A stretch of DNA of 64,000 nucleotides from Dictyostelium discoideum (lineage: Eukaryota). Numbering within the stretch: position 1 is the stretch's first letter; every line of letters starts with the position of its first letter. The notes beneath the pieces are model-generated. The model was not told where the DNA came from. It saw only the letters and a list, made by a program, of their open reading frames with translations, and made no database searches. The stretch lies in contig CM000154.2 of the NCBI GenBank assembly GCA_000004695.1, positions 3,488,001-3,552,000 on the forward strand. Direction: 5' to 3'. Positions 1-51,774 of the stretch are shown here, one piece after another. The translations under genes and the position numbers were made by a program.

Positions 1-49
1 TTTTCATTATGCAATTATATCACCACACTGATTAATTAAATTAACTCCT

Positions 50-80
<31 letters not shown>

Positions 81-379
81 CCTCACACCAATTAATTTCA
101 ATCGCACTTTAAAGTGTTAAACACCACACATACCACATTACAAAATAGATTGTACCTGTTTTCAATCAAAAATAAGTAAAAAATTAACCAAAAAAAAAAA
201 AAAAAAAAAAAAGAAAAAAATAATTTAGAGTGATTTTATTTCTTTTTTTTTTTTTTTTTTTTTTTAATTTTAAATTTGGTTTGTTACATCATAAAAAAAC
301 AAAAAAAAAAAAAAAAGCATTATTAAAAAAAAGAATTATAATTTTACAATAAAAAAAAAAATAAATAATAAAGAATAAA

Positions 380-1241
380 ATGAAAGTTGAACCATTATTA
401 ATTACCCAACTATTTACAATAGTTATTTTAATAATATCTTTAATTAGTAAATATAAATTTTTTATTTTAATTTTATTTTATTTTTTTCTATTCAATTAAT
501 TAATATTAATATTTAAAATTATTATTATTATAATTTTATTATTATATTTTTTTTTTTCTAAAAATAGGTCCATGGCAAGAAATTAAATTTATTGTTAAAG
601 AATTAGGAAAAACAACAATTAAAGAAATTAAACATTCAATTTATAATAAACCATTATTATTTCTAAATAGTGATGGTAATAATAATAATACATCAAATAT
701 TAATTCAAGTGAATATGATAGTGAAATGTTAATATTGTTTATGATAGTATTTGTAATTACAATATTGACAATTTTCATTTACATTTTAATTACAAGATCA
801 ATCGTTAATAAAAAGCATACATCTTTACCACAAGAATTAATAGCACATACATTCCCAATGGTGATAATTGTATTTGTTGTTACTTTAGCATTCATTTCCA
901 CCAATTTTGCAGTTAAAATATGTAGCGACCAATTTTATTATGCAAATTCCACATTATCAGAATCACCGTCATCATCGTCAATAAAATGTTTTGAATTAAA
1001 AATTTCAAATATTGAATTTAATTTATTAAATATAAATACTACCACCACCACCACACCAAACACACACACCAATATAATTGAATCAACAATAAGTTCAAAA
1101 CCAATTTTCGGATATTATTTATTATTTTTATCTGTAATTACAAGTGTTATTTTATCAATAGTTCATATTATTAGATACGATTCTTTAAAGAAAAAATATA
1201 CAGAAAATCATTTCTATACAAAATTAAATAATTTTGTTTAA
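380..1241 (+). CDS. hypothetical multi-pass membrane protein, 2 exons (380..446, 568..1241), ~246 aa
   Basis: ATG at 380 sits behind an A-rich leader. Exon 1 ends in phase 1 at a GTAAAT donor (447). A 121-nt AT-rich intron ends ...aaaatag at 567. The splice restores the frame of track ORF 726..1241. Several hydrophobic helices are present (MLILFMIVFVITILTIFIYILI, MVIIVFVVTLAFI, GYYLLFLSVITSVILSIV). No family recognised. Confidence 0.45.
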
Positions 1242-1421
1242 AAATTTAAAAAAAAAAAAAATAAAAAAATTTATAAATAATATAAAATAAAATAAAATTA
1301 TAATAATTTAAATAATATTTAATTAAGGAAATCAAGATAACTTTTTTTTTTTTACCACTGTTTTCAGTTAAAGATATTCAAAAAATTGAATTTTATTATT
1401 AAATTTAATTACACTTGTTTC

Positions 1422-1454
<33 letters not shown>

Positions 1455-2134
1455 TGAATAGAAAAAAAAAATAGTTATTCACCGCATTTTTATTAATTAA
1501 TTAATTTTTTTTTTATTTTTTTTTAAAAAATGAATGATTTAATACCAAAGATTTGATTGGGTTTTTAAATTAATTTAATTATTAAAGAAATTACAATTGC
1601 TTATTGGTCAATAATTTTAAAAAAAAAAAATTAAAATAAAAATAAAAAAAAATTAAAATAAAAATAAGAACCCCATTTAGGATTCTTAAAAATAACAATT
1701 TTTCCATTATTTTTTTTTTTTAAAAAAAAGAAGAAAAAAATCTTTAAGATAATTATAGATTTTGCATTGCAACACTAAAAAATTAATAAAAATTTATTTT
1801 ATTGCACATGCTTGTGTCATGAGCCCCAAACTTTTTTTTTTTTTTAAAAAAAAATTTTCAAAAAATAGGTGTTTCATATGTTTCGTAAACCAAATATCCT
1901 TGTCGTTCAGGACAAAAAAAGATTTTTTTAATTAATTTTTTTTTTTTTTTTTTTTATTTTTGCTTTGGTTTTTTTGTTGGTTGTCATTTTTTTTATTTTT
2001 TTTTTTATTTTTGTTTTATTTTGGTTAATTTACTTATTTCAAAAATAAAAATAAATAAAATTTTATTTATTTATTTTTTTTTAATTTATACTAATAATAA
2101 AAGAATAATAAAAGAATAAATAAAATAAAAAATA

Positions 2135-2145
<11 letters not shown>

Positions 2146-2165
<20 letters not shown>

Positions 2166-2172
2166 AAGATTT

Positions 2173-2224
<52 letters not shown>
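2146..2224. repeat. two poly(A) tracts (22 and 48 nt) in the 5' flank of gene 2340
   Basis: Direct reading. Confidence 0.9.
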
Positions 2225-2226
<2 letters not shown>

Positions 2227-2339
2227 ATTTGTAAAAATAATTATTTGTATCAACAATAATTGATTCTATTTATTTTTATTTTACTTTATTTTATTTAATT
2301 TTATTTATTTAATTTTATTAAAAAAAAAAAAAAAAAAAA

Positions 2340-2832
2340 ATGAAAAACTTTAATCAAATATTTTTATTATTTATTTTAATAGCGGTTATCGCTATTGGTA
2401 AATCAAATTCAGCAAAAATCACAAGTTATTCAGTTATTAGTCAATCATATTATACCGAAAATCCAAATAATCCATCAGAAACTGGTTGTAATACTGTATT
2501 TGATTTAACATTTAATTATGAATATGGATTAAATATTATTTTCACATCAGTTGTATCAGATGAACCCAATTTGGTTTTATTATCATCAAGTACTATTGTT
2601 TCAAATTCAACTTTAAGTACATTTAGATTAACTTCAAGAATTAAAGTACCTGGGTTAGTTACTGCCACATTTACTGGAAAGTATAATACAAATACAAACT
2701 CAAAAATTAAAGGTGATATTGGAATAACATGTTTACGTATGTATTTTAAAATTAAAATAAAATAAAATAAAATAAAATAAAATACAAAATAAATACAAAA
2801 TTATATTTATTAATTAATTAATTATTTTTTTA

Positions 2833-2875
<43 letters not shown>

Positions 2876-5070
2876 CCCAAACTAACAAAGTCCAACCAAC
2901 ACCAACTGACTTACATATTTCTGTACCAAGCAATCAATCAACTCCAATTAATAGAAAAGGACAAAATACTTTTGATGTTGCAATTTTAGTTGGCCAACCA
3001 CCAACAGACTCACTTAATTTTAAAATTAAAAATGAAGTATCATCACCATTCACATTATCATATGATCAATTTTCAAATAATAAGTTTATACTAAAATTTG
3101 AACTTGAATATCCAACACAAATAACTGATAATCCATCAATTGAAATTGAACCACAATCAACAAGTGGTTCAACTATTACAAAGTATAAAACATTTTTTGT
3201 TTATCCATTAATTAAAAGTAAGTTTATAAAATTTTTATTTTTATTTTTTTATTTTATACATATTTTATTAATTTTTAATTCTTTTTAGAATCATTAAATA
3301 GTAATTTTATAAATGGAGCAATTTATCCAACATCATCTAGTACAATTGAATCCAAAGAAGTCTTTGCATATTCAACATTTCAATCTTTATCTGATGATGG
3401 AGAATCAGTACCAACATTTTTTGATGGATTAGGATCAATGAGTGTTGCTTTTCCAGTTGGAAGTTCTTCATCAAATTCAAATTTTTTAGCAATAATTAAA
3501 CCAATTAGGTCTTCATCTTATTCAAATTTAACATTATTATTAACAAATGAAAATTTAGTAGTTTCTGAATTTAAACCATGGAGTAAGTTTGTTTTATTTT
3601 AAAAATAATAATTAATATTAATATTAATTTTTATAATTTTTTATTTTAAAATTGTAAAAAAAAAAAAAAAAAAAAAAAAAAGTCGAATCAAAAACTTTAA
3701 CATTTGACAATAATAATTCTCCAATAGTTATTGGAAATTATTATTTCTCAAAATTATCATGGGCAGATGCTACAACAGGATTACCAATTGATTATAAGAT
3801 AGATACATTATCAAAAAGTGTTGAACAAAAATATATGCCATATTGGTGTATTGAGTCATTTAATTCAGCAACTTATCAAACTACATTTTCACATTCTTTA
3901 ATGGTACCAAATGGATTTGAAGCATCAACTTTCAATTTAATGGGTGTTACATTCTTTAATAAAACATCACATATTAGTTATACAAGTTTACCAAATTCAA
4001 TTAATTCTCAGCCACCAGTTATCACTGATATCATATTAAAAAGTTCATCTAAAGTTCTTGGATTTTCAATAACAAGTGATCAAACATTTAGTCATTTAAT
4101 CATTAATGATAAATTAATAATGACTGCAATTAATATTGTAAATGGTAATTTAAAAAATGGTTACTTTGAATTATCAATTAATAATAATTTCATAAAATCA
4201 ATGTCAAAATCACCATTCACTATTAAAACTTGTAATGTTTTATTTAGTTGTTCAGAATTTCAATATAATTCAACAGATTATAATACTCAATTTCCAAGTT
4301 TATCTTTACCACAATGTAAATTATAAATTTTATATAATTTTTATTTTTTTAAAAAAAGATTATTTTATTAATATATATTTTTATTTTATTTTTTATTTTT
4401 TTAGATGAAAAATTATCATTTAGTGATATAAAATCAATTAGTTTCTTAAAAAATGATATTAATACTACAAATTCAATAATTAATAATTCAATTTATTTAG
4501 AAAGTGATTCAATAAATTCATTGGAGGCAGATACAATATTATTTAAATTGGATGATTATAATCATAATGAATTTAAAGCATTTAGTTGGAATTCTCAATT
4601 GAATTTATTCCAATGTAATTTTAGTATACCAGCAAATTATTATTCAGGTTTAATTTTTTATTCAATTTTATTTGATGATTATGAATATAGTTATTCAAGT
4701 TTGTTGAGTTTATTTGGACCAAGTTCAACAACATTAAGAGTTTCATCCACTACTCCTGATATGATGCCACCAATCGTTGCTTCAGTAACATCAAAACCAA
4801 GTACAACAATTGTATTAAGTTCAAGTAATTATCAACAAAATGAATTTGGTTGGGATATTGTTATTGAAGAGGGTGTTAATGGATTTGATCATGGTGAATT
4901 CAATATAACTAGTAAATTCGATACAATTGGTTACCAATTTAAATTTACTCAATCAGATTTAGTTAATGGTAATTTACTTAAAATTAGAATTAAACAACCA
5001 GATATTGTTTGTTTAACACAAGAATATTCAATTACATCTGCTTATTTAGTTGATAAACAAGGTTATAAAA

Positions 5071-5113
<43 letters not shown>

Positions 5114-7445
5114 TAAATCATCTAAATCAGAGATCTCTGCATTATTCAAAGTTTCAAATTCAAACCAATTAACAATTAAAGTTCAATGTCCAGATAGTAA
5201 TGGTAGTGGTTATAATAGTACAAATATTGATTCTATTCTACCTTATTTATCATCATTTTCAATTAATTCAAATATTAGTTATATGGATATTCAAAATCAA
5301 GTTTTATCAATTGCTTTCCAAATTAAAGATAATGAAAGTGGTTTATCCACTAGACATAATCCAACTATTTACTTGGAAGATACACTTGGTAATATTATTT
5401 TTAGTACAGTTGGTAGTGGTATGGTTGTATTGGAAAGTAGCTCACATTCAAGATCTTATAAATGTAATATTACATTACCATTTGGTTTTGGTTTCCCTGG
5501 TGGTGTTTCAGTTTCAATCTATGGTATTGTAGATAAATTTATGAATGCCAAAGGTTATAGTTCAACAAGTTTAAAACAAACCGTTGACATTATTAATGGT
5601 GGTGATACTTCAAAATTCAATCCAATCGTTGATACACCATACAATGAAACTTCTCCATTAGCACCATATATCCCTCAACCAATTTATAATTCACAATCAA
5701 AAACTTTACAATTTGTTATTTATGGTTCATTTGTTGGCTTAAAACCAAGTGATATCATTGTTAAAGTTTCAAAAAAGAAATCAACAACAAATACTCCAAT
5801 TTTAATAAGAACTTTATTATCAAATAGTGATGATAGTGATGATGGTGATTTCCCTTACACTGTAGTTGAAATGACAGATTCTAAAGTTGTTTTAAATGTT
5901 AATATTACTGATGCAGCTAATGATTTAGATGCTGAATCTTTAGATGTTAGTTTTTTAATTGGTGATCAAACTCCAATTCTTTACAATATTGAAAATCCAG
6001 CTATTGTCACAACTTCTGGTGCTTCTTCAACCTCTCTAACAACAGTAACAACAGGCACTTCTCAAACAACAAGTACTTCTCAAACAACGGGTGGCACTAC
6101 CAATGGTGCTTCAACTACTGATGGTTCAGCAACTGGTGATTCTACAACATCAGCATCAACAGTAACAACATCACCAACCTCAACTACTGATGGCAGTCAA
6201 ACAACATCACCAACCTCAACTACTGATGGCAGTCAAACAACATCACCAACCTCTACCTCGGGTGATTCTACAACATCAGCATCTACAACAACACCAACTT
6301 CAACTACAACAGGTGGTTCATCTACTGCAACATCAACATCAAGTGGTGGGTCATCATCAACATCAACATCAACATCATCATCATCATCATCAGTTCCAGA
6401 TTGTTCAAGTTTATCAAATTGTGGTGGTTCAAGTCAAGGTAATTGTGTTGCAGATAATACATGTAGTTGTATTAACTCATGGATTGGAGTAGATTGTAAT
6501 TCTAAACCATTAAAAGGTGTATCAATAAATGTTAATCCAAATGCACCAAGTGCTTCATTAGATCAAGATGATGGATCAGGTGTTAAATTATCAAGTTTAA
6601 TTAATCTTTACCAAATTAGAGAAATTGATTCAGTTACAAATAAAATAATTTATCAATATGATTTACAAGATAAATGGGTACCAGTAAAACAAGCATCACC
6701 AATACCAAATACATTTATTTATTCAAATACATTATCAAATGCTAAAAGTTCAGTTATTTATGCAAAAATTGCAATTTATGATAAACAATCAACATTTGAA
6801 TTTGCAGGTCAACAATATTCAATTAATCCAAATTCAATTAAATTTACAATTAATATTACAAATTATAAAGTTGATAATGTATTAAATAATTTAGAATTGA
6901 TTATGCAAGCACAATTAAATTCATCACAAACTGATGATATTTGTTCAAAGAAAGAAGTTGTCAAAGGAAGTGGTTCAGATCAATTATCAGTTCAATTAAA
7001 TAATAAATCATTATATTGTAGATTTTTAAATAGTGCATTATTAGATGGAGTTACAGTTGTCAATAATTTAACTCATGTAGATTTAAATTCAGAACTTCAA
7101 GCATTGGTTGAACCAAATTCTGGTCAATATTACTATGGTATTGTTTTACCAGTTTTTGAAAACTTTGTTTTAATAGACCCAGATTTTTCTTTACTTTTAC
7201 AATCGAATTCAGTTTCAAGTGAAGATGGTTTATGTACAGGTGGTGGAGGTAGTGTAAAAGTATTAAATGGTGGACAAATAGCTGGTATTGTTATTGGTGG
7301 TGTTGCTTTCGTTGCGATTGCTGGTATTGCTATCTCTACCTTTGTTTTTAGAACTCATCGTTTCAGTTCAATGACAATGTCAATCAGAAGTTGGAATGCT
7401 AAAAGACGTCATTCAAAATCTTTCAAATTAAAGAATTTCCAATAA
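2340..7445 (+). CDS. large type-I surface glycoprotein (~1563 aa), 5 exons: 2340..2736, 2891..3217, 3289..3582, 3683..4315, 4405..7445. Signal peptide, large ectodomain, Ser/Thr-rich mucin-like linker, EGF-like Cys module, one TM helix, short basic tail
   Basis: Track ORFs 2340.., 3835.., 4521..7445 join with phase-consistent splices. The donors are GTATGT 2737, GTAAGT 3218, GTAAGT 3583 and GTAAAT 4316. The acceptors are ..caaag 2890, ..tttttag 3288, ..aaaag 3682 and ..ttttag 4404. Total CDS is 4692 nt, divisible by 3. N-terminus MKNFNQIFLLFILIAVIAIG looks like a signal peptide. The module PDCSSLSNCGGSSQGNCVADNTCSCINSWIGVDC is EGF-like. The segment GIVIGGVAFVAIAGIAISTFVF is a TM helix followed by the tail RTHRFSS..KRRHSK. 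Family uncertain; it may be IPT/EGF-type adhesion-like. Confidence 0.6.
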
Positions 7446-7798
7446 AAAAAAAAAAAAAATAAGAATTTAAAAAAAAAAAAAAACAATCAAAAAATATTTT
7501 ATTTCTTTTTTCTTTTTTTTTTTTTTTTTTTAATTTTAATATAAAAATCTAAAAAAGAAAATATTGCGTAATAAATTTTATTTTTTTTAATTTTTTTTTT
7601 TTTTTGATAATTTTACAAGGCATGAAAGAATTTGTGATTTCAGTATGAGAGTTTTCGATTAGAAGATATTTTATTTTATTTTTCTTTATTTTTATTTTTA
7701 TTTTTTTTTTTTAAACTTTTTTTTTTTTTAAAACTATTTTTATTACACACCCTCGCTCATCGAAAAATAAAAAAAGAGAAAAAAATTAAAAAATAAAA

Positions 7799-8641
7799 AT
7801 GAAACAAATAATATTTTTATTTTTTTCATTATTATTATTTAATTGTTTTTTAAAAACAAATGGAGACTTTCAAGTTTTAAATCAAACAACAGTTTCCACA
7901 ACATCAATGTATTATAATATGGGAAGTGTAATAGGATGTTACACAACAATTTTAATAGAAATCCCATTCAATTCAACTTTTGGTCAAATCAAAAAATTTA
8001 CAGTTTTTGCAAGTGAATCAAATACATTTAGAATTCAATCAGCAATACCATTGAATCAAGATACTTATAAAATTGATGGCACTATTTTAAATTTAGGTTC
8101 CTATTCAATTTCTTTAAATGGTAGTTATGCGAATAATGCCACAGAAAAAATAACCCCAATTGATCTAACATGTAGTGGTAAATATATTCATTTTTTTATT
8201 TTTTATTTTCTATTTTTATTTTCATTTTTTCTATTTTTTAAAGCTTTGCAATTGAAATTCTAAACAATATTTAACTTTTTAAAAAAATTAGATGCACCAA
8301 ATATTACAGACTTAGGAATTGTTTTACCAAGTGAATCAATTCCAATTAGTAGATATGGTGAATATTTATTTGAAGTACCAGTCATTGTTCCCGCTCTTAC
8401 AGAATCAGATTCAATAGAATTATCATTTGCTTTAAATGAGTCTTCTCCATTCAAAATTTTCTACGAACAAATATCAACAAACTTTTTCATTTTAAGATTT
8501 AAACTTAATGATCCTTCATTAATATCATTTCAAGGTCCATTGGAGATTACTCCACAAAATCTCAATAGTGGTGTAATTATAAAAAGCTATACATCATTCA
8601 TAGTCTATCCAAATGTTGGTGGTATGTATTTATTTATTTAC

Positions 8642-8684
<43 letters not shown>

Positions 8685-11600
8685 TTTTAATTAACACCTT
8701 TTTTTCTGGGAAAAAAAAAGTTTCAAGTGAATCTCAATTCAGTAGTATTTATTTCTACCCAGATTATAACGGTGAAACAACATCAGAATACTTTGGATAT
8801 GTAACATTTGATGTTTTAAATGATGATAGAGCTATAGTACCAGGTGTAACAAATAATTTATTAAATTTGGATACTTCAGAGAAAATGGATTTTGGTGTTG
8901 CTTTTCCAGTTGGCTACAATGGAACACATTCTCAATTTATGGGAATTATTGAACCAGGTAGAAAAGCTTCATTCTATTGGTACCTTGCTTCAACTGATAA
9001 TTCAGATATTTTACATACTAGATTTGTTCCAAAGAGTAACTATTTCTTTATTTCTTTTTATTTTATTATTATTATTATTTTAAAAAAAAAAACTAATTTA
9101 ATAATTTAAATTATATAGGGGATGTTAGACCTGTACCAATATCCACATCAGCTCAAGAACTTAATTATTGTCGTATTGGTATAATTGTTGTTGGAGATCA
9201 ATCTTTTGATTATACAATGCCTACAATCTATAAGTTTTCAACCAATAATGGAGATTTCCATGAATATATTCCATATTGGAGTGTAGATAGTTTTTATTCA
9301 AATACCAGTATCACAAGTATTTCACATGAATTAATTCTTCCAGCTGGTTACTACAATCCAACATTTAAAATGTATGCATCAATTTTAAATTATGATGATA
9401 CTGTTAGTTTACAAGTTCCAGGATCACCTGTTCCACCACTTGGTAATAGAGCACCGCCAACTGTTTTAGATATAGAATTAATTTCACCAACTGGTATTTT
9501 ATCAAACTTTTATATTTTAAGATTTAAAGTACAATCAGATTATTCAGAATTCCATCATTTAGATATTAATGGTAAAAAGGTATATGCAATTAATATAGTT
9601 TCAGGAAGTTTAAGTCAAGGATCCATAGGTTACTATGAAATCAATGTAAATTATACTTTTATAAAATCATTATCAAATTCTTTCACAATTAGCGCATGTG
9701 GTATTTTCCTTGATTGTCAAACCAATCAATATTTCCCACAATTATTAAATCCATTCCCAAGTTTACAATTACCTCATAATAATCTTATCACTGTTTATAA
9801 TATCACATATATAAATTTTAAATATAATAATTTAAATACAACAAATACCTCTAGAAATAATATTATTTATTTGAAGATAAATGGTTTAAGTGGATCGGGT
9901 GATGCTGAAACTATTCAATTTAAATTAGATATTTATGATGATTATTTACCATTCACATGGAATTCATTGTTATCTATGTTCCAATGTAATTTTAAGATTC
10001 CAGGAAATTATTATTCAGGTAATGTTGGTTACTCAATAATATTGGGTAGTAATAGTTTTAGTTATTCAAGTGTTTTTATTGCAACTGGTTCAAATTCAAC
10101 ATTGAATGTAACTTCATTAAAATCTGATATGTTACCTCCTATAATTAATTATATCCAAGCCTATCCAACAACTAATATTTATTTAGATCCTTATAATTCA
10201 TCATTAAATATTTTTGGATGGGATCTTGAAATTGAAGAAGGTGTTAATGGATTTGATCATGGCGAAGTCAATATTACAAGTGCTTATGATAAAGTTGGTT
10301 TCACCTTTAAATTTAACTCTTCAGATTTAATCGATGGTTATATTATTGAAATTAGAATTAATCATACTGAGATGGTATGTTTAGACCAAGCCTATTCAAT
10401 TACATCAGTTTACTTGGTTGATAAACAAGGTTATGAAACATCAAGATCATCTCAATATCAATCAGTTTCGGCATTATTTAAAGTGGCAGCATCTGATCAA
10501 TTATTAATTTATGTTCAATGTTCAAATGATAATGGTATTGGATATAATAGTACACATCCAGATGTCATTACTCCATTTATTTATAGTTTTTTCTTAGATT
10601 CTGGTTTATTTGACATCCAACTTGATTATGGTTCACCTTCTTCTAATAAAACTGTTATTGCAACACTAAGTATAGAAGATTCTGAGAGTGGTTTATCAAG
10701 TAGACACCATCCAACTATTTACCTTCAAGATGTTTTCGGTACTTTGATATCAATATCCATAGGAAATGGTATGACAGTTGTTGATGATACTGTATTTACA
10801 AGAACCTATTCATGTATTTTCACTATTCCATTTGGCTTTGGTTACCCAGCTGGTGCATCAATTGCAGTCTATGGTATTGTTGATAGATTTATGAATACAA
10901 GAGGTTATAATCATTACTCTTTATTTTATGATATCGGTAGAGGAACTGTCTCACCTTTTATATCCACTTCTTATTCATTGGCTCCTAGTATTGTAAATAT
11001 GGTTCCAACATTTGATCCAGATTATAAAAGTGCACAATTTATTATCTATGGTTCATTCCTTGGTTTGGTTTCTTCCGATGTTCAATTAACTATTGAATAT
11101 ATTAGTGAATCTTCACAATCTTCTTCACAAGATTCTCAATCACAAGAATTTACCTTAAGCCCAAGAAATATTTTATCAACCACAACAACTACAGTTCCAT
11201 TCACTGTTTCTTCAATTTTTGGTAATTTGATAGCAATTTCTGTTAATCTACAAAATGCAATATCCAGACAAATTCAAATCCAATTAAATGTTGCTGGACA
11301 ACCATCAAATGTTTATAACTTTATTTTACCATCAGAGGTAATAGATTCAACATCTACATCAGGTATTTCAACAACAACAACAGCTACTACTACTACAACA
11401 ACCCAAGATTCAACAAGTGGATCAGCTACTTCAGGTGGTGGTTCAACTACAACCGGTGGTGGTTCTTCTACTACTTCCACAACAACTGGTACTTCTGGTC
11501 CAGATTGTTCAAAATTATCAAATTGTGGTGGCTCAAGTCAGGGTAATTGTGTTGCAGATAATACATGTAGTTGTATTAACTCATGGATTGGAGTAGATTG

Positions 11601-12546
11601 TAATTCTAAACCATTAAAAGGTGTATCAATAAATGTTAATCCAAATGCACCAAGTGCTTCATTAGATCAAGATGATGGATCAGGTGTTAAATTATCAAGT
11701 TTAATTAATCTTTACCAAATTAGAGAAATTGATTCAGTTACAAATAAAATAATTTATCAATATGATTTACAAGATAAATGGGTACCAGTAAAACAAGCAT
11801 CACCAATACCAAATACATTTATTTATTCAAATACATTATCAAATGCTAAAAGTTCAGTTATTTATGCAAAAATTGCAATTTATGATAAACAATCAACATT
11901 TGAATTTGCAGGTCAACAATATTCAATTAATCCAAATTCAATTAAATTTACAATTAATATTACAAATTATAAAGTTGATAATGTATTAAATAATTTAGAA
12001 TTGATTATGCAAGCACAATTAAATTCATCACAAACTGATGATATTTGTTCAAAGAAAGAAGTTGTCAAAGGAAGTGGTTCAGATCAATTATCAGTTCAAT
12101 TAAATAATAAATCATTATATTGTAGATTTTTAAATAGTGCATTATTAGATGGAGTTACAGTTGTCAAAAATTTAACTCATGTAAATTTAAATTCAGAATT
12201 TCAAGCATTGGTTGAGCCAAATTCTGGTCAATACTTTTATGGTATTGTTTTACCAACCTTTAACGATTATATAATTTTGGATCCAGATTTTTCTTTACTT
12301 TTACAATCATCTACGATCTCAAGTGACGATGGAGGAGTTTGTTCAAGCTCAAGTAGTAAAAAATTCCCAGTAGGTGCAATAGTTGGTATTGTTGTTGGTG
12401 GTGTTGCTTTCATTGTTGTTATAGCGATAGTTATTTCAACAATACTATTTAGAAGACATCGTTTCAGTTCTGTTACAATGAAACTTAGAACTTGGAACTC
12501 TAAAAGACGTTCAAAATCAAAATCATATAATTTAAAGAATTTTTAG
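7799..12546 (+). CDS. paralog of the upstream surface glycoprotein (~1483 aa), 4 exons: 7799..8177, 8292..8621, 8721..9035, 9119..12546
   Basis: ATG 7799 with signal peptide MKQIIFLFFSLLLFNCFL. Donors are GTAAAT 8178, GTATGT 8622 and GTAACT 9036. Acceptors are ..ttag 8291, ..aaaag 8720 and ..atag 9118. All phases are consistent, and the CDS is 4452 nt. Architecture matches gene 2340..7445 (VNGFDHGE motif, S/T-rich linker, identical EGF-like module, TM VGIVVGGVAFIVVIAIVISTILF, tail RRHRFSS). The first three intron positions are shared with the paralog. Track ORF 8260..8454(-) is antisense to exon 2 and spurious. Confidence 0.6.
8626..8688. repeat. (TTTA)n microsatellite inside intron 2 of gene 7799..12546
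   Basis: Direct reading. It creates the poly-LFIY stretch in track ORF 8540..9109. Confidence 0.9.
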
Positions 12547-12582
12547 ACAATAAACTGTAAAATTATTAATATCATTTAACTG

Positions 12583-12616
<34 letters not shown>

Positions 12617-12700
12617 CTTTAAAAATGTTTTTTAAATTTATTTTTTTAAATTTTTAATTATAAATAGAAAGAGGTGATTGAATTGATTTTGTTTTTTTGG

Positions 12701-13546
12701 TTATTGGTGTAAATTTAATGGTTTTTTCCAAGCATTATTTGAACCATCTTTAATATCAATTTTCTTGGAATTGAATAATTCTTCATCCATGTTATCAATT
12801 TTATCTTGATGAGTTACACCATTAAAGTTTTTTGATAATTTAATTAATGGCTCAGAATAGTTAACTTCCTTTTTTTCAACAAAATTATCACTTAATCTTT
12901 CCATTGTTGCTTGGATTTTATTTGGACCATTGTTTTGGAAACCACGGTTATAACTTCCTGCTTTAACCATTAAATAACCGAGTGCTGGTTTAATAATATT
13001 AAAGTAACCATAATTGGCTAATGGAATATTTTGAATTACACTTTCCAAATCTGTAATTTCTTCAAACTAAATTATATTATTAAAAAAAAAAAAAAAAGAA
13101 AAAAAAGAGAAAAAGAAAAAAAAATTATTAATTAATTTTATTTTTAATTAATATATAATATTATTTTTTTATTTATTTAATTTTTTTTTAAAATTTATTA
13201 TTTATCTTTTACTTACTTTTGTGATTTTATTTTCTTTATTTTTATGTATATTAATAATCATTCTATAATTAAATTTAACAAATGGTAAAATGTTAAAAGT
13301 AATTTCTTGTTGAGTATTTAAAACAATGCAGTGACTTGAATGAGTATAATTATATTTTGAAATTTTAATATCTTTTGCATAGAAACCAATTGCTTTAAAT
13401 ATTTCATGAATTGCTTCAATACCTTTTACTTTAAAACTTGGAATATTAAATGCTTCAAACTCGCAGTCCTCTGCAAAGTTTTTATCAATTAAATCCAAAT
13501 TTGGGTGGACTGTGTATAATTTAATAATATCATTAATTTCAACCAT
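12701..13546 (-). CDS. hypothetical protein, 231 aa, 2 exons (13546..13217, 13066..12701)
   Basis: ATG at 13546 (MVEINDII) sits behind an A-rich leader. Exon 1 ends in phase 0 after ..KENKITK at a GTAAGT donor (minus, 13216..13211). A 150-nt intron follows. The acceptor is tttag, and exon 2 starts FEEITDLESV. The track 'M' at 13048 is a TTG codon inside exon 2. Non-low-complexity sequence; family not recognised. Confidence 0.5.
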
Positions 13547-13654
13547 TTTTTTTTTTATATATATATACAATATTTAAATACTAAATGAATATATAATAAT
13601 TAATTTATTTTGAAAAAAAAATTGATTATGTTTTATTTTTATTTTTAGAAAAAT

Positions 13655-13703
<49 letters not shown>

Positions 13704-14395
13704 AAATTAAAAAAAAAAAAAAAAAAACAATGTTAATAGTGTTGATTTAGATTTAAAAAAATACATTATCTATTGATATGGAAACACTACTACTTTTTTT
13801 TTTTAATTTCTTTTTTAATTTCTTTATTTTATTGGGAAGTGTGTTAAAAAAAGAAATTATTACCAGATCACATTAATGCTTTGAGATTGAATAATTACCC
13901 ACCACTTTATTCATAAATTTTAATTTTATTTTTATTTTTAATTGAATAATTTTCCCCCACCACTACTTTTACCACTGCAATATTTTACCATTTTTATTAT
14001 ACCCAACACCATTTTTCTTTACCACCATATTAAAAAAAAAAAAAAAAAAAAGTGGTGTGAAAGTTATTTTTATTTTATTTTATTTTTTTTTTTTTTTTTT
14101 TTTTTTATATTGTAATTCCTCCAAAGCCAAAAAAATAAAAAATAATAATTTATTTGAAAAATTATTAAAAAAAAAAAAAAAAACTTGAGTAATGAATAAA
14201 AAAAAAAAAAAAAAAAATGATTAAAAATAAAAAAAAAATTACAATTTTTATAAAATGATTCCATGATTCCCACATTCAATATAATATATATCTCACCCAA
14301 AATCATCAATTAAATTTAAAAAAAATATGAATATTTCAAATATGATCTTAGATTGTATTGTTCTATTTTTAATTAATTTTGAAATTTATTAAAAA

Positions 14396-14429
<34 letters not shown>

Positions 14430-14779
14430 GTAATTATAATAATAATAATAATATAAACAATAATAATAATAAATAAAATTTCACATTATGTACAATGAAT
14501 TTAAATAAACACTATGAATAGTATTTATATTTCAAGTTTTATTTTTTATTTTTTATTTATTTTTTTTTTTTTTATATATTTTTTTTTTTCGTTTGTGATT
14601 GAAAAAAATAATAATTTTAAAATTTACTTTTTAAATATATTTTTATAAAATTTGATAGGATTATAAAATTAACCTTTTTTTTTTTTTCTTTGATAAAAAA
14701 AAAAAAATAAAACCTGATTTAATTAAAGGTAATTTATGTTATTTTTTTTTTTTTTTTATTTCCTTGAAAATTTTTTATT

Positions 14780-15206
14780 TTAAAATTCACAATAATTTAA
14801 TTTCCAACAAACTTCATCTTGGTCAAAATTTTTTAAATTTTCAGTAATATATGGCATTTCATTTTCAATAAATTGTTGAGTGGTATTCTATGGAAAAGAA
14901 AAAGAAAAAAAAGAAAAAAAAAATTTTTATTAGAAAAATGTTTTTGATCTTTTTTTTTTTTATTTTATAAAAAAATAAAATAAAAAATAATAAAATAATA
15001 AAAAATAAGATATTTACAAATGATACTCCAAATTTTGTAGTAATTTTATGTAAATCAAATGAATTAAAATACTTATTTCCTAATCCATAGATTATCATTA
15101 TAGCCCCTTCACATAATCTACATCTTTCACTAATTAGAGTGAAAGAAAATGTGATATTGATTAAAATAATAAAAAATATAAATGAAGATTTAAAACTTCT
15201 ATACAT
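14780..15206 (-). CDS. small secreted 4-Cys protein (~98 aa), 2 exons (15206..15018, 14887..14780)
   Basis: ATG 15206 with hydrophobic N-terminus MYRSFKSSFIFFIILINITFSF. Exon 1 ends ..KFGVSF in phase 0 at a GTAAAT donor. The acceptor is a long pyrimidine tract ending ..ttttccatag. Exon 2 reads NTTQQFIENEMPYITENLKNFDQDEVCWKLNYCEF then a stop. Cys pattern is CxxC...CxxxxC. The track ORF read through the intron into poly-F junk. Confidence 0.35.
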
Positions 15207-16634
15207 TTTTTAATAAAAAAATATAATATAATTGATATATAAAGTTTTTTTAAATTTAAAAATAAAAAAAACAAGTAAATTTTATTTTTGCAAGCAAAGA
15301 TAGTTATATAAAATAAAAAACAAACAAACAATAATTTAAACAAGTATTAAAATATTTTAATATATTATTATTTTTTTTATACTTGATTGATATTTTAAGA
15401 GCAAGTATTAATAAAATTTATAATTTTTATAATTATAAAAGAGAATATATAAAAATAAAAAATAAATAAATAGGTATTTGTTTTAAATATAATTTATAAA
15501 AATAAAATAAAAAAATAAAAATAAATATATATATATATTATATATAAAAAAATTATAAATAATTGATTATTATTATAAAAAAACATATGAAATTATACTT
15601 TAATATCTTACCATATCACTAATCATCAATTTAAAATAATGGGTGGTAGTGGTAAATAATTAATTTCAGCCGTACCCATCACGCATACATATAAAATTTG
15701 TATTTACTTATAAAATAAAAGAAAACAATAAAATAAAAATATTAAAAACTAAAGTAAAAAAACAAAAGATTAAAATTAAAATCTGATTAACCTCTTTGAA
15801 AATTTCCTTCATTTATTATTTAAATTTTTTTTTTGATTTTTTTTTTTTTTTTTTTTGTGCTTTTTTTAGGATAATAAAATACTTTATTTTGGTGTTTTTT
15901 TTATTTTATTTTTTTCATTATAATTATAATTAAAAAAAAAAAAAAAATGTTTTTACAATTTAATTATTAACACCACCACCACCACCATCAACATTAATTT
16001 TTAATGTATCTCCTACTACAACCCATCCAATATAAATTTTCTATTTTATCTATTAGGTAATTTTACTCGAAATACTGTAAATCTAATTTTTTTGTTTTGA
16101 ATTGTAAGAATAATTTTATATTAAAACTATAATCAAAATAATTTTTTTAATTTTAATTAGTATTTATTTTTTGTTTTTGGTAAGAACATTTTTTATGGGG
16201 TTATTTTTTTCGTTTATTTTTTTTTTTAAAAAAAATAAAAAATAAAAATAAAAATAAAAATAAAAAAAAAAAAAATAAAAAATTAATAAAGATTAATTCC
16301 TATTTTATTTATACTGACTGAATGACCCCCATAATATTGATATTTTTATATATATTTACATTTGATTAAAATCTTTTAAATCGAAATATATTTATAAAAT
16401 TTGTAAAAACCTATTATTATTATTTTTTTTGAAATAAATTGTTTTCTTTTTCGTCATTAAAAAACGAATTTTAAAATCTCTTATCAACATACTTACCATA
16501 TATGTTAATAATGTAATGTTGTACACAAATTTTTGGTATAAAAAAAATTAAAAGATGAAATTAAAGATCATTGTGTTTGTTTATCTTATTATTTTTGTTT
16601 TGTTTTTTTTTTATAATTAAATAAAAAATAACTT

Positions 16635-25847: not shown

Positions 25848-25947
25848 NNNNNNNNNNNNNNNNNNNNNNNNNNNNNNNNNNNNNNNNNNNNNNNNNNNNN
25901 NNNNNNNNNNNNNNNNNNNNNNNNNNNNNNNNNNNNNNNNNNNNNNN
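25848..25947. other. assembly gap (100 N)
   Basis: Run of n characters. Confidence 1.
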
Positions 25948-40128: not shown

Positions 40129-40639
40129 TCTTTTTTTTATTTATTTATTTATATATAATAAAATTAAGATAAAATTTTATAATTTGTGGTGAAACTGTTA
40201 TTAATAATAAAAAAAAAAAAAAAAATTAAAAAAAAAAAAAAAAAAGAAATTAATAATGAAAATAATAATAATAATAATAATGTGGTATATTTTTATTATT
40301 AAAAATAAAAAATAAAAAAATAAAATAAAAATAAATTTATAAGCACATGTGTTCAAATTTTTAATTAAACCACTACCCCCTTTGATATAATTAAATTTTT
40401 TGAAATGATTATATTTGAATGTGATTAATTAAGTTTCCCACCACCTAAAAAAATTTTTTTTTTTTTTATAATTATTATTATTATTTTTTTTTTTTAATTA
40501 GTTTTTAATTTTCTTTTCTATTAATAGAATAAAACTGTTGAGAGAAAACATGTTTATTATTAGTACTTTTTTAAAAAATTAAAAAAAATTTTAATTTTAA
40601 TTTATTTTTTATTATTGTTATTATTATTAATTTAAAGGT

Positions 40640-41200
40640 TTTCTTGTATGAAAAATTTGAGTTTCATAATAAACAGTAAATTCTTTATTATTTGAAGTTA
40701 ATTCAAAATTATCTAATTTTGTTTTAATTGATTTATAAATTCTTGTTTTTCATTTGGTGGTAAAATTGAGATATAACTTTGACTTAATGAAGAAGCAATT
40801 GTTTTTTCACCAGTTGTAATTTGTGGATTTGGTAATGGTGGTATTAATTCAATAAAATCTGGGTTTAATAAATGGTGTAATTTTGAATCATTTTTAATTT
40901 CATCGAAAACATCTCTCCATTTATCACGTAATGATCGTGTTGGACTGACATTTCCTTCACCACCATGATACTTGGTATCACTATGAAGTCTTAAATTTTT
41001 TCAAATTGAATTGGATTTTTTGAATCTTGTCCAAATTTTAATTTATGCCAAATTATTACTAAAACACCATTGATATTTCCCACCTTTGATATTTCCCTAA
41101 CAGATTCAATATTACTAAACCAATGCCATGCCCAGCATACTGTTATACAGTCTATGAAATTATCAGGTAATGGAATTGATGTTGATAATCCATTTAAAAC
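40640..41200 (-). pseudogene. 5'-truncated, degenerate copy of the adjacent Tmt1-like methyltransferase gene
   Basis: About 560 bp align by eye with the C-terminal two-thirds of gene 41568..42446. Examples are ..cataataaacagtaaattctttattatttgaagtta.., ..catctctccatttatcacgtaatga.. and ..ccctaacagattcaatattactaaaccaatgccatgc... Several indels and substitutions mean no ORF of 60 aa or more survives. The segment encoding SAM-binding motif I is absent. Confidence 0.55.
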
Positions 41201-41567: not shown

Positions 41568-42446
41568 TTAAATGTTTGGTTTTCTAGTATAAAATACTTC
41601 AGTATCATAATAAACAGTAAATTCTTTATTATTTGAAGTTAAATTAAAATTTTCTAAATTTTGTTTTAATTCATTTATAAATTGTTGTTTTTCATTTGGA
41701 GGTAATAATGAAATATAACTCATACTAAGTGATGAGGCAATTGTTTTTTCACCAAAAGTAATTTGAGGGTTTGAGAATGATGGCGATTTTGTAAGATCTG
41801 GATTTAAGTAAATATGAGTGGTTGGATCATTTTTCATTTCATCAAAAACATCTCTCCATTTATCACGTAATGATTTAGTTGGTAAATGATTATTTGCATT
41901 AAATTTTGCATCCCTATGAAGTCTAATAATTCCTTCAAGTTGTTGTGGATTTTTTGAGTTTTCACCAAAGTTTGCAATATTCCAAATTATTGCCAATACA
42001 CCATTTGGTTTTAGTACTCTTGATACTTCCCTAACAGATTCAATATTACTAAACCAATGCCATGCTGTTGCAACTGTAATACAGTCAACTGAATTATCAG
42101 GTAATGGAATTGAAGTTGATAAACCTTCTAATACTTTAAAATTTAATGAATTATTATTTTCAAGTTTTACTTGATTTAAAATATTTTCACATTCTTTTCT
42201 AAAATCACCACTTGGTTCAATACATGTAATATTATTAAAACCACCTTCAATTGCTAAAACTTTTGTAAATTTACCTGGTCCTGATGCTAAATCAACTATA
42301 ACTGAATCATTTGATAATCCTAAACTTTTTATAAATTCAATACATTCTTTTGGATATGATGGTCTACCTTTTGAATAATTATCACTACATTCTTTTGTAT
42401 GATAACCATATGCATTATCTTTTAATTTTAAATTTTCATTAATCAT
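41568..42446 (-). CDS. class I SAM-dependent methyltransferase, trans-aconitate methyltransferase (Tmt1)-like, 292 aa
   Basis: GRPSYP motif near the N-terminus. Motif I is VDLASGPGKFT. Motif post I/II is ..VDCITVATAWHWF... The overall pattern fits the yeast Tmt1/Crg1 family. Confidence 0.75.
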   Translation of the reverse strand: MINENLKLKDNAYGYHTKECSDNYSKGRPSYPKECIEFIKSLGLSNDSVIVDLASGPGKFTKVLAIEGGFNNITCIEPSGDFRKECENILNQVKLENNNSLNFKVLEGLSTSIPLPDNSVDCITVATAWHWFSNIESVREVSRVLKPNGVLAIIWNIANFGENSKNPQQLEGIIRLHRDAKFNANNHLPTKSLRDKWRDVFDEMKNDPTTHIYLNPDLTKSPSFSNPQITFGEKTIASSLSMSYISLLPPNEKQQFINELKQNLENFNLTSNNKEFTVYYDTEVFYTRKPNI

Positions 42447-42852: not shown

Positions 42853-43707
42853 TTAAACAATTGGTTTTTTTGTAAAATAAACCTCAGTTTGATAAATCAT
42901 TGGAAAATCTTTATTATCTTTTGAATCTTCAAGTGAATCTAAACTTTTTTTAATCATTGAAACAAGTTTATCTTTCTTTTCTTGAGGGAATAAGGCAATG
43001 AAAGAAATTGAAAGTGTTGTTGCAATTATTTTTTCACAATTTGTGATTTGTTCATTTTTAAATTTTCTTAATTGTAAATTTGGATCAATTAAAGTTTTTG
43101 AGAGAGTTTCATCATTTTTAATATCTTCAAAGACTTGTTTCCATTTACCAGTTCTGAATTTTGGTGAATTGTCATCTGTATATTGTTTATTATTTCTGAA
43201 TAATTCCATTGTACTTTGAAAAATTGGATTATCATCCTCGGATAAATTATTCCAAATTAAGTATAAAACACCACCTGGTTTAAGTACCCTTGTAATTTCT
43301 TTAATTGCATCAACATTATCATACCAATGAAAACTTTGTGCTGCACATATACAATCGAATGTACTATTTTCAAATGGTAATGATGTTGCTAACCCATTCA
43401 CTACTTGAATATCCTTATTTTTATCATCAATAAATTCTTTTAAAACATATGAACAATCAACACGAAATTCTGGACTTGGTTCAACACAAACCACATTTTT
43501 AAAATCAGCTTCACAAATCATTTTTGAAAATTTTCCAGTACCACATGCTAAATCCATAATTTTTGAATCAATAGTTAATCCTAAATCTTCTTTTAACATT
43601 TTAATTGCTTCAATTGGATATGATGGACGACCTTTAACATAATTTGATGAAACATCTTTATCATGATATGCTTTTGCATTTGAATGTAAATTTAAAATTT
43701 CTGTCAT
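42853..43707 (-). CDS. class I SAM-dependent methyltransferase, Tmt1-like paralog, 284 aa
   Basis: Paralog of 41568..42446 with GRPSYP, MDLACGTGKFS and FDCICAAQSFHWY. Track ORF 42998..43219(+) is antisense and spurious. Confidence 0.75.
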   Translation of the reverse strand: MTEILNLHSNAKAYHDKDVSSNYVKGRPSYPIEAIKMLKEDLGLTIDSKIMDLACGTGKFSKMICEADFKNVVCVEPSPEFRVDCSYVLKEFIDDKNKDIQVVNGLATSLPFENSTFDCICAAQSFHWYDNVDAIKEITRVLKPGGVLYLIWNNLSEDDNPIFQSTMELFRNNKQYTDDNSPKFRTGKWKQVFEDIKNDETLSKTLIDPNLQLRKFKNEQITNCEKIIATTLSISFIALFPQEKKDKLVSMIKKSLDSLEDSKDNKDFPMIYQTEVYFTKKPIV

Positions 43708-51674: not shown

Positions 51675-51774
51675 NNNNNNNNNNNNNNNNNNNNNNNNNN
51701 NNNNNNNNNNNNNNNNNNNNNNNNNNNNNNNNNNNNNNNNNNNNNNNNNNNNNNNNNNNNNNNNNNNNNNNNNN
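51675..51774. other. assembly gap (100 N)
   Basis: Run of n characters. Confidence 1.

Follow-up and report, generated by a model that had tools for sequence, protein, structure and literature searches.

A pair of tandem ComC-family genes

The window analysed here, a 64-kb stretch of the Dictyostelium discoideum genome with a GC content of 20.5%, carries two neighbouring genes for type I membrane proteins of the ComC family, both on the + strand. The upstream paralog, gene A (2340-7445), encodes 1563 aa in five exons (2340-2736, 2891-3217, 3289-3582, 3683-4315 and 4405-7445), whose GT..AG junctions were modelled against the D. citrinum ortholog P0004. The length of this model equals that of the gene called in an independent assembly (L005), and no protein identical to it was found in the public protein collection. 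The downstream paralog, gene B (7799-12546), encodes 1483 aa in four exons (7799-8177, 8292-8621, 8721-9035 and 9119-12546), and its model matches exactly an entry of D. discoideum AX4 (XP_636002.2, EAL62487.2, UniProt Q54GR7) that is annotated as 'EGF-like domain-containing protein'. Gene A has an extra intron at 4316-4404, at a position where the last exon of gene B (9119-12546) is uninterrupted. A search for tRNA genes found none.

Both proteins contain, in the same order, the Pfam domains DUF7035, DUF7034, DUF7949 (EGF-like) and ComC_SSD, with scores of 106, 98, 29 and 59 bits in gene A and 96, 77, 29 and 57 bits in gene B, all above the gathering cut-offs of 27, 27, 27 and 24 bits. A Ser/Thr-rich linker precedes the EGF-like module in both, and a predicted transmembrane (TM) helix and a short C-terminal tail follow ComC_SSD. 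These four domains in order, followed by a TM helix, are the features by which we assigned both genes to the family; they share with it the full architecture and the C-terminal TM helix, and they are distinct from comC itself, a group-4-restricted, developmentally essential gene with EGF domains (PMC4931340). A poly-Ser run in gene A (5070-5125) varies in length among D. discoideum strains and among species.

A near-identical block in the last exons

A reading of the sequence alone had drawn attention to a block of about 750 bp that is nearly identical in the two paralogs, and the alignments bear this out. A global alignment of 6395-7152 in gene A with 11499-12256 in gene B (both + strand) runs at a constant offset of 5104 with no indels, and 12 of its 758 positions are mismatched (98.4% identity). 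The gene A copy spans 252 codons, from PDCS to GIVLP (PDCS...GIVLP). The mismatches fall at gene A positions 6409, 6410, 6428, 6437, 7064, 7080, 7095, 7112, 7130, 7132, 7133 and 7152, and include the two differences that had been quoted as examples (T/A at 7064 and G/A at 7080). They leave a perfectly identical core of 626 bp, at 6438-7063 in gene A and 11542-12167 in gene B, again on the + strand. The same pair of segments was picked up independently by a repeat search (family D14).

The identity is confined to the block. The aligned last exons have a p-distance of 0.284 over 2697 nt, and when their columns were permuted 10000 times the longest identical run was at most 45, compared with the 626 observed; a tract of high identity with sharp limits in otherwise diverged paralogs, beyond what chance would produce, is one of the patterns expected of gene conversion. 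Outside the block the coding sequences are 40-80% identical, in line with the earlier description of the flanks as loosely similar, and divergence is thus not uniform along the genes (98.4% in the block vs 40-80% in the flanks). Sliding identity along the last exons gave no further tract in which A and B are at least 90% identical, and the 64-kb window holds no third copy of the block.

The block codes for the EGF-like module (DUF7949) and most of ComC_SSD. The sequence-only reading had let it cover the EGF-like module and the membrane-proximal domain of about 210 aa; the first part stands, and the second holds for most of that domain, since the block stops about 15-17 residues before the end of the fold.

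Limits of the block

At the 5′ limit the EGF-like module begins and a linker rich in repeats and polymorphic in length ends. This Ser/Thr-rich, low-complexity linker (6003-6394 in gene A, with its equivalent at about 11335-11498 in gene B, both + strand) is unalignable and of variable length between paralogs and strains, A/B identity upstream of the block being 40-60%; inside the gene A linker lie 36-bp direct repeats (repeat search, family D20). The length of the mucin-like gene A linker (6003-6394) differs among species as well as among D. discoideum strains.

On the 3′ side, the flank of gene A (7153-7445, + strand) encodes the last two predicted beta strands, a juxtamembrane stretch, the TM helix (about 7269-7340; residues 292-325 of the AlphaFold2 model) and the cytoplasmic tail; the equivalent in gene B is 12257-12546 (+ strand). 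A/B identity downstream is 55-80%, with 3-bp indels, and just past 7152 nine of about 20 positions are mismatched and indels occur. The motifs that follow the limit, PVFENFVLID in A-type and PTFNDY..LD in B-type genes, are each conserved across species. In an AlphaFold2 model (mean pLDDT 77) the 3′ limit falls inside a predicted beta sandwich, the last two strands of which are outside the block, and the block is therefore not a clean structural module.

The best structural match of the predicted unit of EGF, beta sandwich and TM helix (6396-7442) is the luminal domain of GLMP, a lysosomal membrane protein (6nyq_C, E = 3.9e-7), with a modest TM-score of 0.46. Another modest match is 8r8q_B, an accessory chain of a lysosomal transporter complex, and weaker ones are glycoside hydrolase supersandwich domains and the YidC periplasmic domain. 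No sequence relative was found in the PDB.

The block in independent assemblies

The earlier reading had left open a collapse of the assembly as an alternative. Over 18.8 kb, L005 (GCA_054883475.1), which was assembled independently and to chromosome level, is 99.5% identical to the window (7 mismatches, 13 gaps), and the last 1100 nt of both genes are identical in the two, down to the same 12 A/B differences. Six more assemblies have two copies, every pair with private A/B differences. The gaps in the window, 100 N each at 25848-25947 and 51675-51774, are not within 13 kb of the block. The block is thus not an assembly artefact, because L005 independently reproduces both copies base for base, and collapse can be set aside. 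Near-identical repeats of 750 bp are indeed prone to homogenisation by short-read polishing, but an artefact of this kind, or a collapsed or duplicated repeat, is extremely improbable given the same 12 differences in L005, the nearest gap more than 13 kb off, the two copies at matching positions in six other assemblies from four species with species-specific shared substitutions, and 72 lineage-specific substitutions common to both copies, which polishing cannot make.

Concerted evolution of the block across genomes

Syntenic loci with both genes were compared in D. discoideum (L001, L005 and L006), D. cf. discoideum (L002 and L007), D. dimigraforme (L003) and D. citrinum (L004), which with the window makes eight loci. 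In every syntenic locus the block has the same outer limits and the two copies differ at 9-32 positions, as against 60-84 between species. Synonymous divergence, which the earlier reading had proposed to compute inside and outside the block, separates the two sharply. Between paralogs (Nei-Gojobori, five genomes) dS is 0.02-0.09 in the block (0.032 in the window), 0.81-1.01 in the N-terminal ectodomain (0.875 in the window) and 0.67-0.87 in the 3′ part and tail (0.725 in the window). Between orthologs, comparing the window with D. dimigraforme or D. citrinum, it is 0.23-0.30 in the block and 0.25-0.44 in the flanks. Because silent change between species is similar in block and flanks, the block is not ultra-conserved or frozen; the combination of low paralog dS in the tract, relative to its flanks, with normal dS between species is that expected of conversion.

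Site patterns and trees give the same picture. Across seven genomes, 72 core sites vary among genomes and yet have A equal to B in each, and none is diagnostic of the paralog; the 3′ flank has no such concerted site and 54 paralog-diagnostic ones. In a neighbour-joining tree the block groups by genome, with a bootstrap of 100 for the pairs of D. dimigraforme, D. citrinum and D. cf. discoideum and also for the D. discoideum clade. In the trees of both flanks an A clade is separate from a B clade. Grouping by genome in the tract and by ortholog in the flanks is again what conversion predicts. Each gene has kept its own A-type or B-type ectodomain and tail in all eight loci, with synteny conserved, as expected of non-reciprocal exchange without crossover. 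These comparisons show that the two copies have been homogenised, that this happened repeatedly, and that it stayed confined to the block.

Gene conversion as the probable origin of the block

We consider it very probable, on these sequence patterns, that the block is a recurrent interlocus (non-allelic) gene conversion tract between tandem same-strand ComC-family paralogs, kept alike by repair from the other copy. The non-reciprocal exchange between the copies that had been suggested from a single sequence thereby finds support, in eight assemblies, from divergence at silent sites, from the patterns of variable sites and from the incongruence of the trees.

Two explanations that dispense with continued exchange fare poorly. 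One is very strong purifying selection on the nucleotides of the block in both genes, as might act on an RNA or DNA element embedded there, and no exchange at all. The block encodes the module that the family conserves best (its aa identity with the D. purpureum relatives is about 52-55%, vs about 34% for the ectodomain), but silent change between species proceeds at a normal rate (dS 0.23-0.30), a search of positions 1-16000 gave no Rfam match, and the opposite strand of the block has no ORF of 100 aa or more. Selection alone, moreover, cannot yield 72 changes that A and B of a genome have in common, and we regard this explanation as highly implausible. The other is one ancient partial exchange, or a partial duplication, before the species split, with nothing since. 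That the outer limits are alike in all species would suit such an event; it predicts, however, grouping by ortholog and an A/B distance at least as large as that between species, instead of the 9-32 vs 60-84 differences and the grouping by genome that are seen, and the sharing of variants at the level of D. discoideum strains needs events after the strains diverged. A single ancient event is therefore scarcely tenable as the sole cause, if marginally more so than selection without exchange, and an ancient founding event followed by continued conversion is compatible with the data.

For gene conversion itself, we infer the following route of repair and cause of the boundaries. A break or gap inside one block would be repaired by homologous recombination templated by the other block, 5104 bp away, on the same chromatid or the sister. 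In a haploid amoeba before replication, a paralog may be the only homologous template. Copying would take place without crossover, leaving each gene its own ectodomain, TM helix and tail, and new mutations in the block would be either erased or spread to both copies, so that the block would evolve in concert within each genome and diverge between species. The 5′ limit would arise from the length-variable Ser/Thr linker and the 3′ limit from the stretch after 7152 that is dense in mismatches and indels; both would be held because homology there is too poor for heteroduplex to extend, and selection for flanks specific to each paralog may reinforce them. Since divergence of the flanks should block heteroduplex extension, a homogenised island of this kind should perpetuate itself. 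A third genomic copy outside the window could be donating to both genes, which would change the donor and not the process.

Unequal crossing-over was also considered as a candidate and rejected: it would give chimeric genes or a change in copy number, and eight of eight loci keep two genes with their own flanks.

The block bears no footprint of GC-biased conversion, because its GC3 in D. discoideum (4-6%; 0.044-0.063) lies below that of the flanks (9-17%; Fisher p = 0.006 and 0.0007), the opposite of what biased conversion predicts. Such bias is not a requirement of gene conversion.

Tempo, direction and tract structure

Within D. discoideum, the copies in the window each differ from those of L001 and L006 at 12-15 core sites, and do not differ from each other. 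Given 12-15 vs 0 core differences, at least one conversion over 6438-7063 took place after the D. discoideum lineages split, and this interval marks, judging by these counts, the least extent of the most recent conversion in the AX4 lineage. The exchange had earlier been called recent. It is indeed ongoing within D. discoideum, but it was not a single recent event: the comparisons indicate conversion that recurs and that at least four species have kept up.

Transfers appear to run in both directions, on the basis of single sites and parsimony. The derived allele at 6513, confined to gene A in L001 and L006, is present in both copies in the window, which suggests transfer from A to B. Transfer from B to A is suggested by three derived alleles, at 6551, 6411 and 6447, each of which one strain has in gene B only and its sister has in both genes.

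At the edges of the block (sites 6409/6410, 7080, 7095, 7130 and 7132/7133) the A and B states are kept in several lineages and homogenised in others. Because these states persist in several lineages, the centre of the block has been converted more often than its edges; tracts with variable end points would be expected to leave just such a mixture of kept and homogenised edge sites.

A 35-bp island (equivalent to 6956-6990) is still paralog-specific in D. dimigraforme and D. citrinum. In these two species copy A reads K(D/E)NTTT(S/D)NSDQL, which creates an N-x-T sequon, and copy B reads KE(I/V)VKG..SDQL; in the D. discoideum clade both copies are of the B type. As the island stays divergent in D. 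dimigraforme and D. citrinum, homogenisation is not uniform along the block.

Selection on the conversion tract

The alternative that survives best accepts that conversion occurs and holds that limits and identity are kept mainly by selection, for a common 'constant region' of EGF module and sandwich combined with different ectodomains and tails. Limits that are alike in at least four species, A-type and B-type motifs past the 3′ limit that are each conserved across species, and a paralog-specific 35-bp island amid converted sequence in D. dimigraforme and D. citrinum are all consistent with it, the island being easier to explain in this way. On the other hand, the 3′ limit divides the predicted beta sandwich instead of lying at a domain boundary, dN/dS is at least as high in the block (about 0.15-0.3) as in the flanks, the relatives in D. 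purpureum show no homogenisation (57% aa), and homology-dependent conversion alone makes self-sustaining islands with sharp edges. We therefore think it unlikely, at perhaps one chance in a few, that selection is the main keeper of the limits; either a homology barrier or selection would account for their stability.

More speculative still, and somewhat less likely, is that identity of the EGF module and sandwich is functionally required, for example for binding the same partner or for pairing of A with B, and that conversion is a selected 'constant-region' mechanism that spares ectodomains and tails. If this were true, selection acting on conversion tracts, in a cell-communication family of a social amoeba, would have left its traces in the stable limits and in the protected 35-bp island.

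Relatives of the pair and comparison with known systems

For the C-terminal module, an exhaustive profile-free search gave 836 representative relatives. Apart from A and B themselves, the nearest among them are two proteins of D. purpureum (P0011 and P0012), with about 50% identity in that module; other family members have about 30-38%. P0011 and P0012 are 43% identical to each other in the ectodomain and 57% (aa) in the C-terminal module, lie on separate scaffolds and are not homogenised. One of the two D. purpureum genes (loci L010 and L011) ends 218 bp before the end of its scaffold and the other starts 4 kb into a scaffold of 17 kb, and the two could be adjacent in the genome. The ectodomains of A and B are closer to each other (47% aa identity) than to those of the D. 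purpureum proteins (about 34%), distances that would fit either lineage-specific duplications or an older homogenisation of whole genes. Two more distant members that we examined, P0006 of D. dimigraforme and P0005 of D. purpureum, are single genes without a tandem partner.

Textbook cases of interlocus conversion include primate gamma-globin, the red and green opsins, RHD and RHCE, CYP21A2 and CYP21A1P, and Drosophila Hsp70. Like these, A and B are linked paralogs in direct orientation with a near-identical tract of low silent divergence in otherwise diverged genes, the tract grouping by species and the flanks by ortholog, and with no crossover products. Unlike them, the A/B tract is bounded at the same places in at least four Dictyostelium species, comprises part of a coding exon only, without intron or flanking DNA, and lies in a haploid, extremely AT-rich genome without GC enrichment. 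In the clustered protocadherins, an example of constant/variable organisation among adhesion receptors, the common part is encoded by exons that the genes share and that are joined on by splicing. The combination of divergent ectodomains with an identical membrane-proximal portion in neighbouring genes resembles that arrangement by analogy only: A and B each own a copy that is kept identical by DNA exchange, and their TM helices and tails are not common. Full-text literature searches turned up no account of gene conversion in A and B or in their family. The pair is thus a new and unusually clean multi-species example of a well-known process, and not a new kind of system.

Consequences and a further paralog group in the window

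The locus offers a very clean case of domain-restricted concerted evolution in Dictyostelium. Analyses of orthology or selection in A and B will be misleading if they include the block, and the same may hold for other tandem genes of the ComC family. On the practical side, short reads, probes, knock-out arms and guide RNAs that fall within 6395-7152 match both genes. The locus could also serve as a natural reporter of mitotic interlocus recombination in a haploid model organism, and a tract that is converted repeatedly in a genome of 20% GC, yet is not enriched in GC, adds a small data point to the debate on biased conversion.

Elsewhere in the window, two tandem class-I methyltransferase paralogs on the - strand (41568-42446 and 42853-43707) are about 66% identical. 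A third copy (40637-41188, - strand), frameshifted or truncated and 80% identical to 41578-42122, may be a pseudogene.
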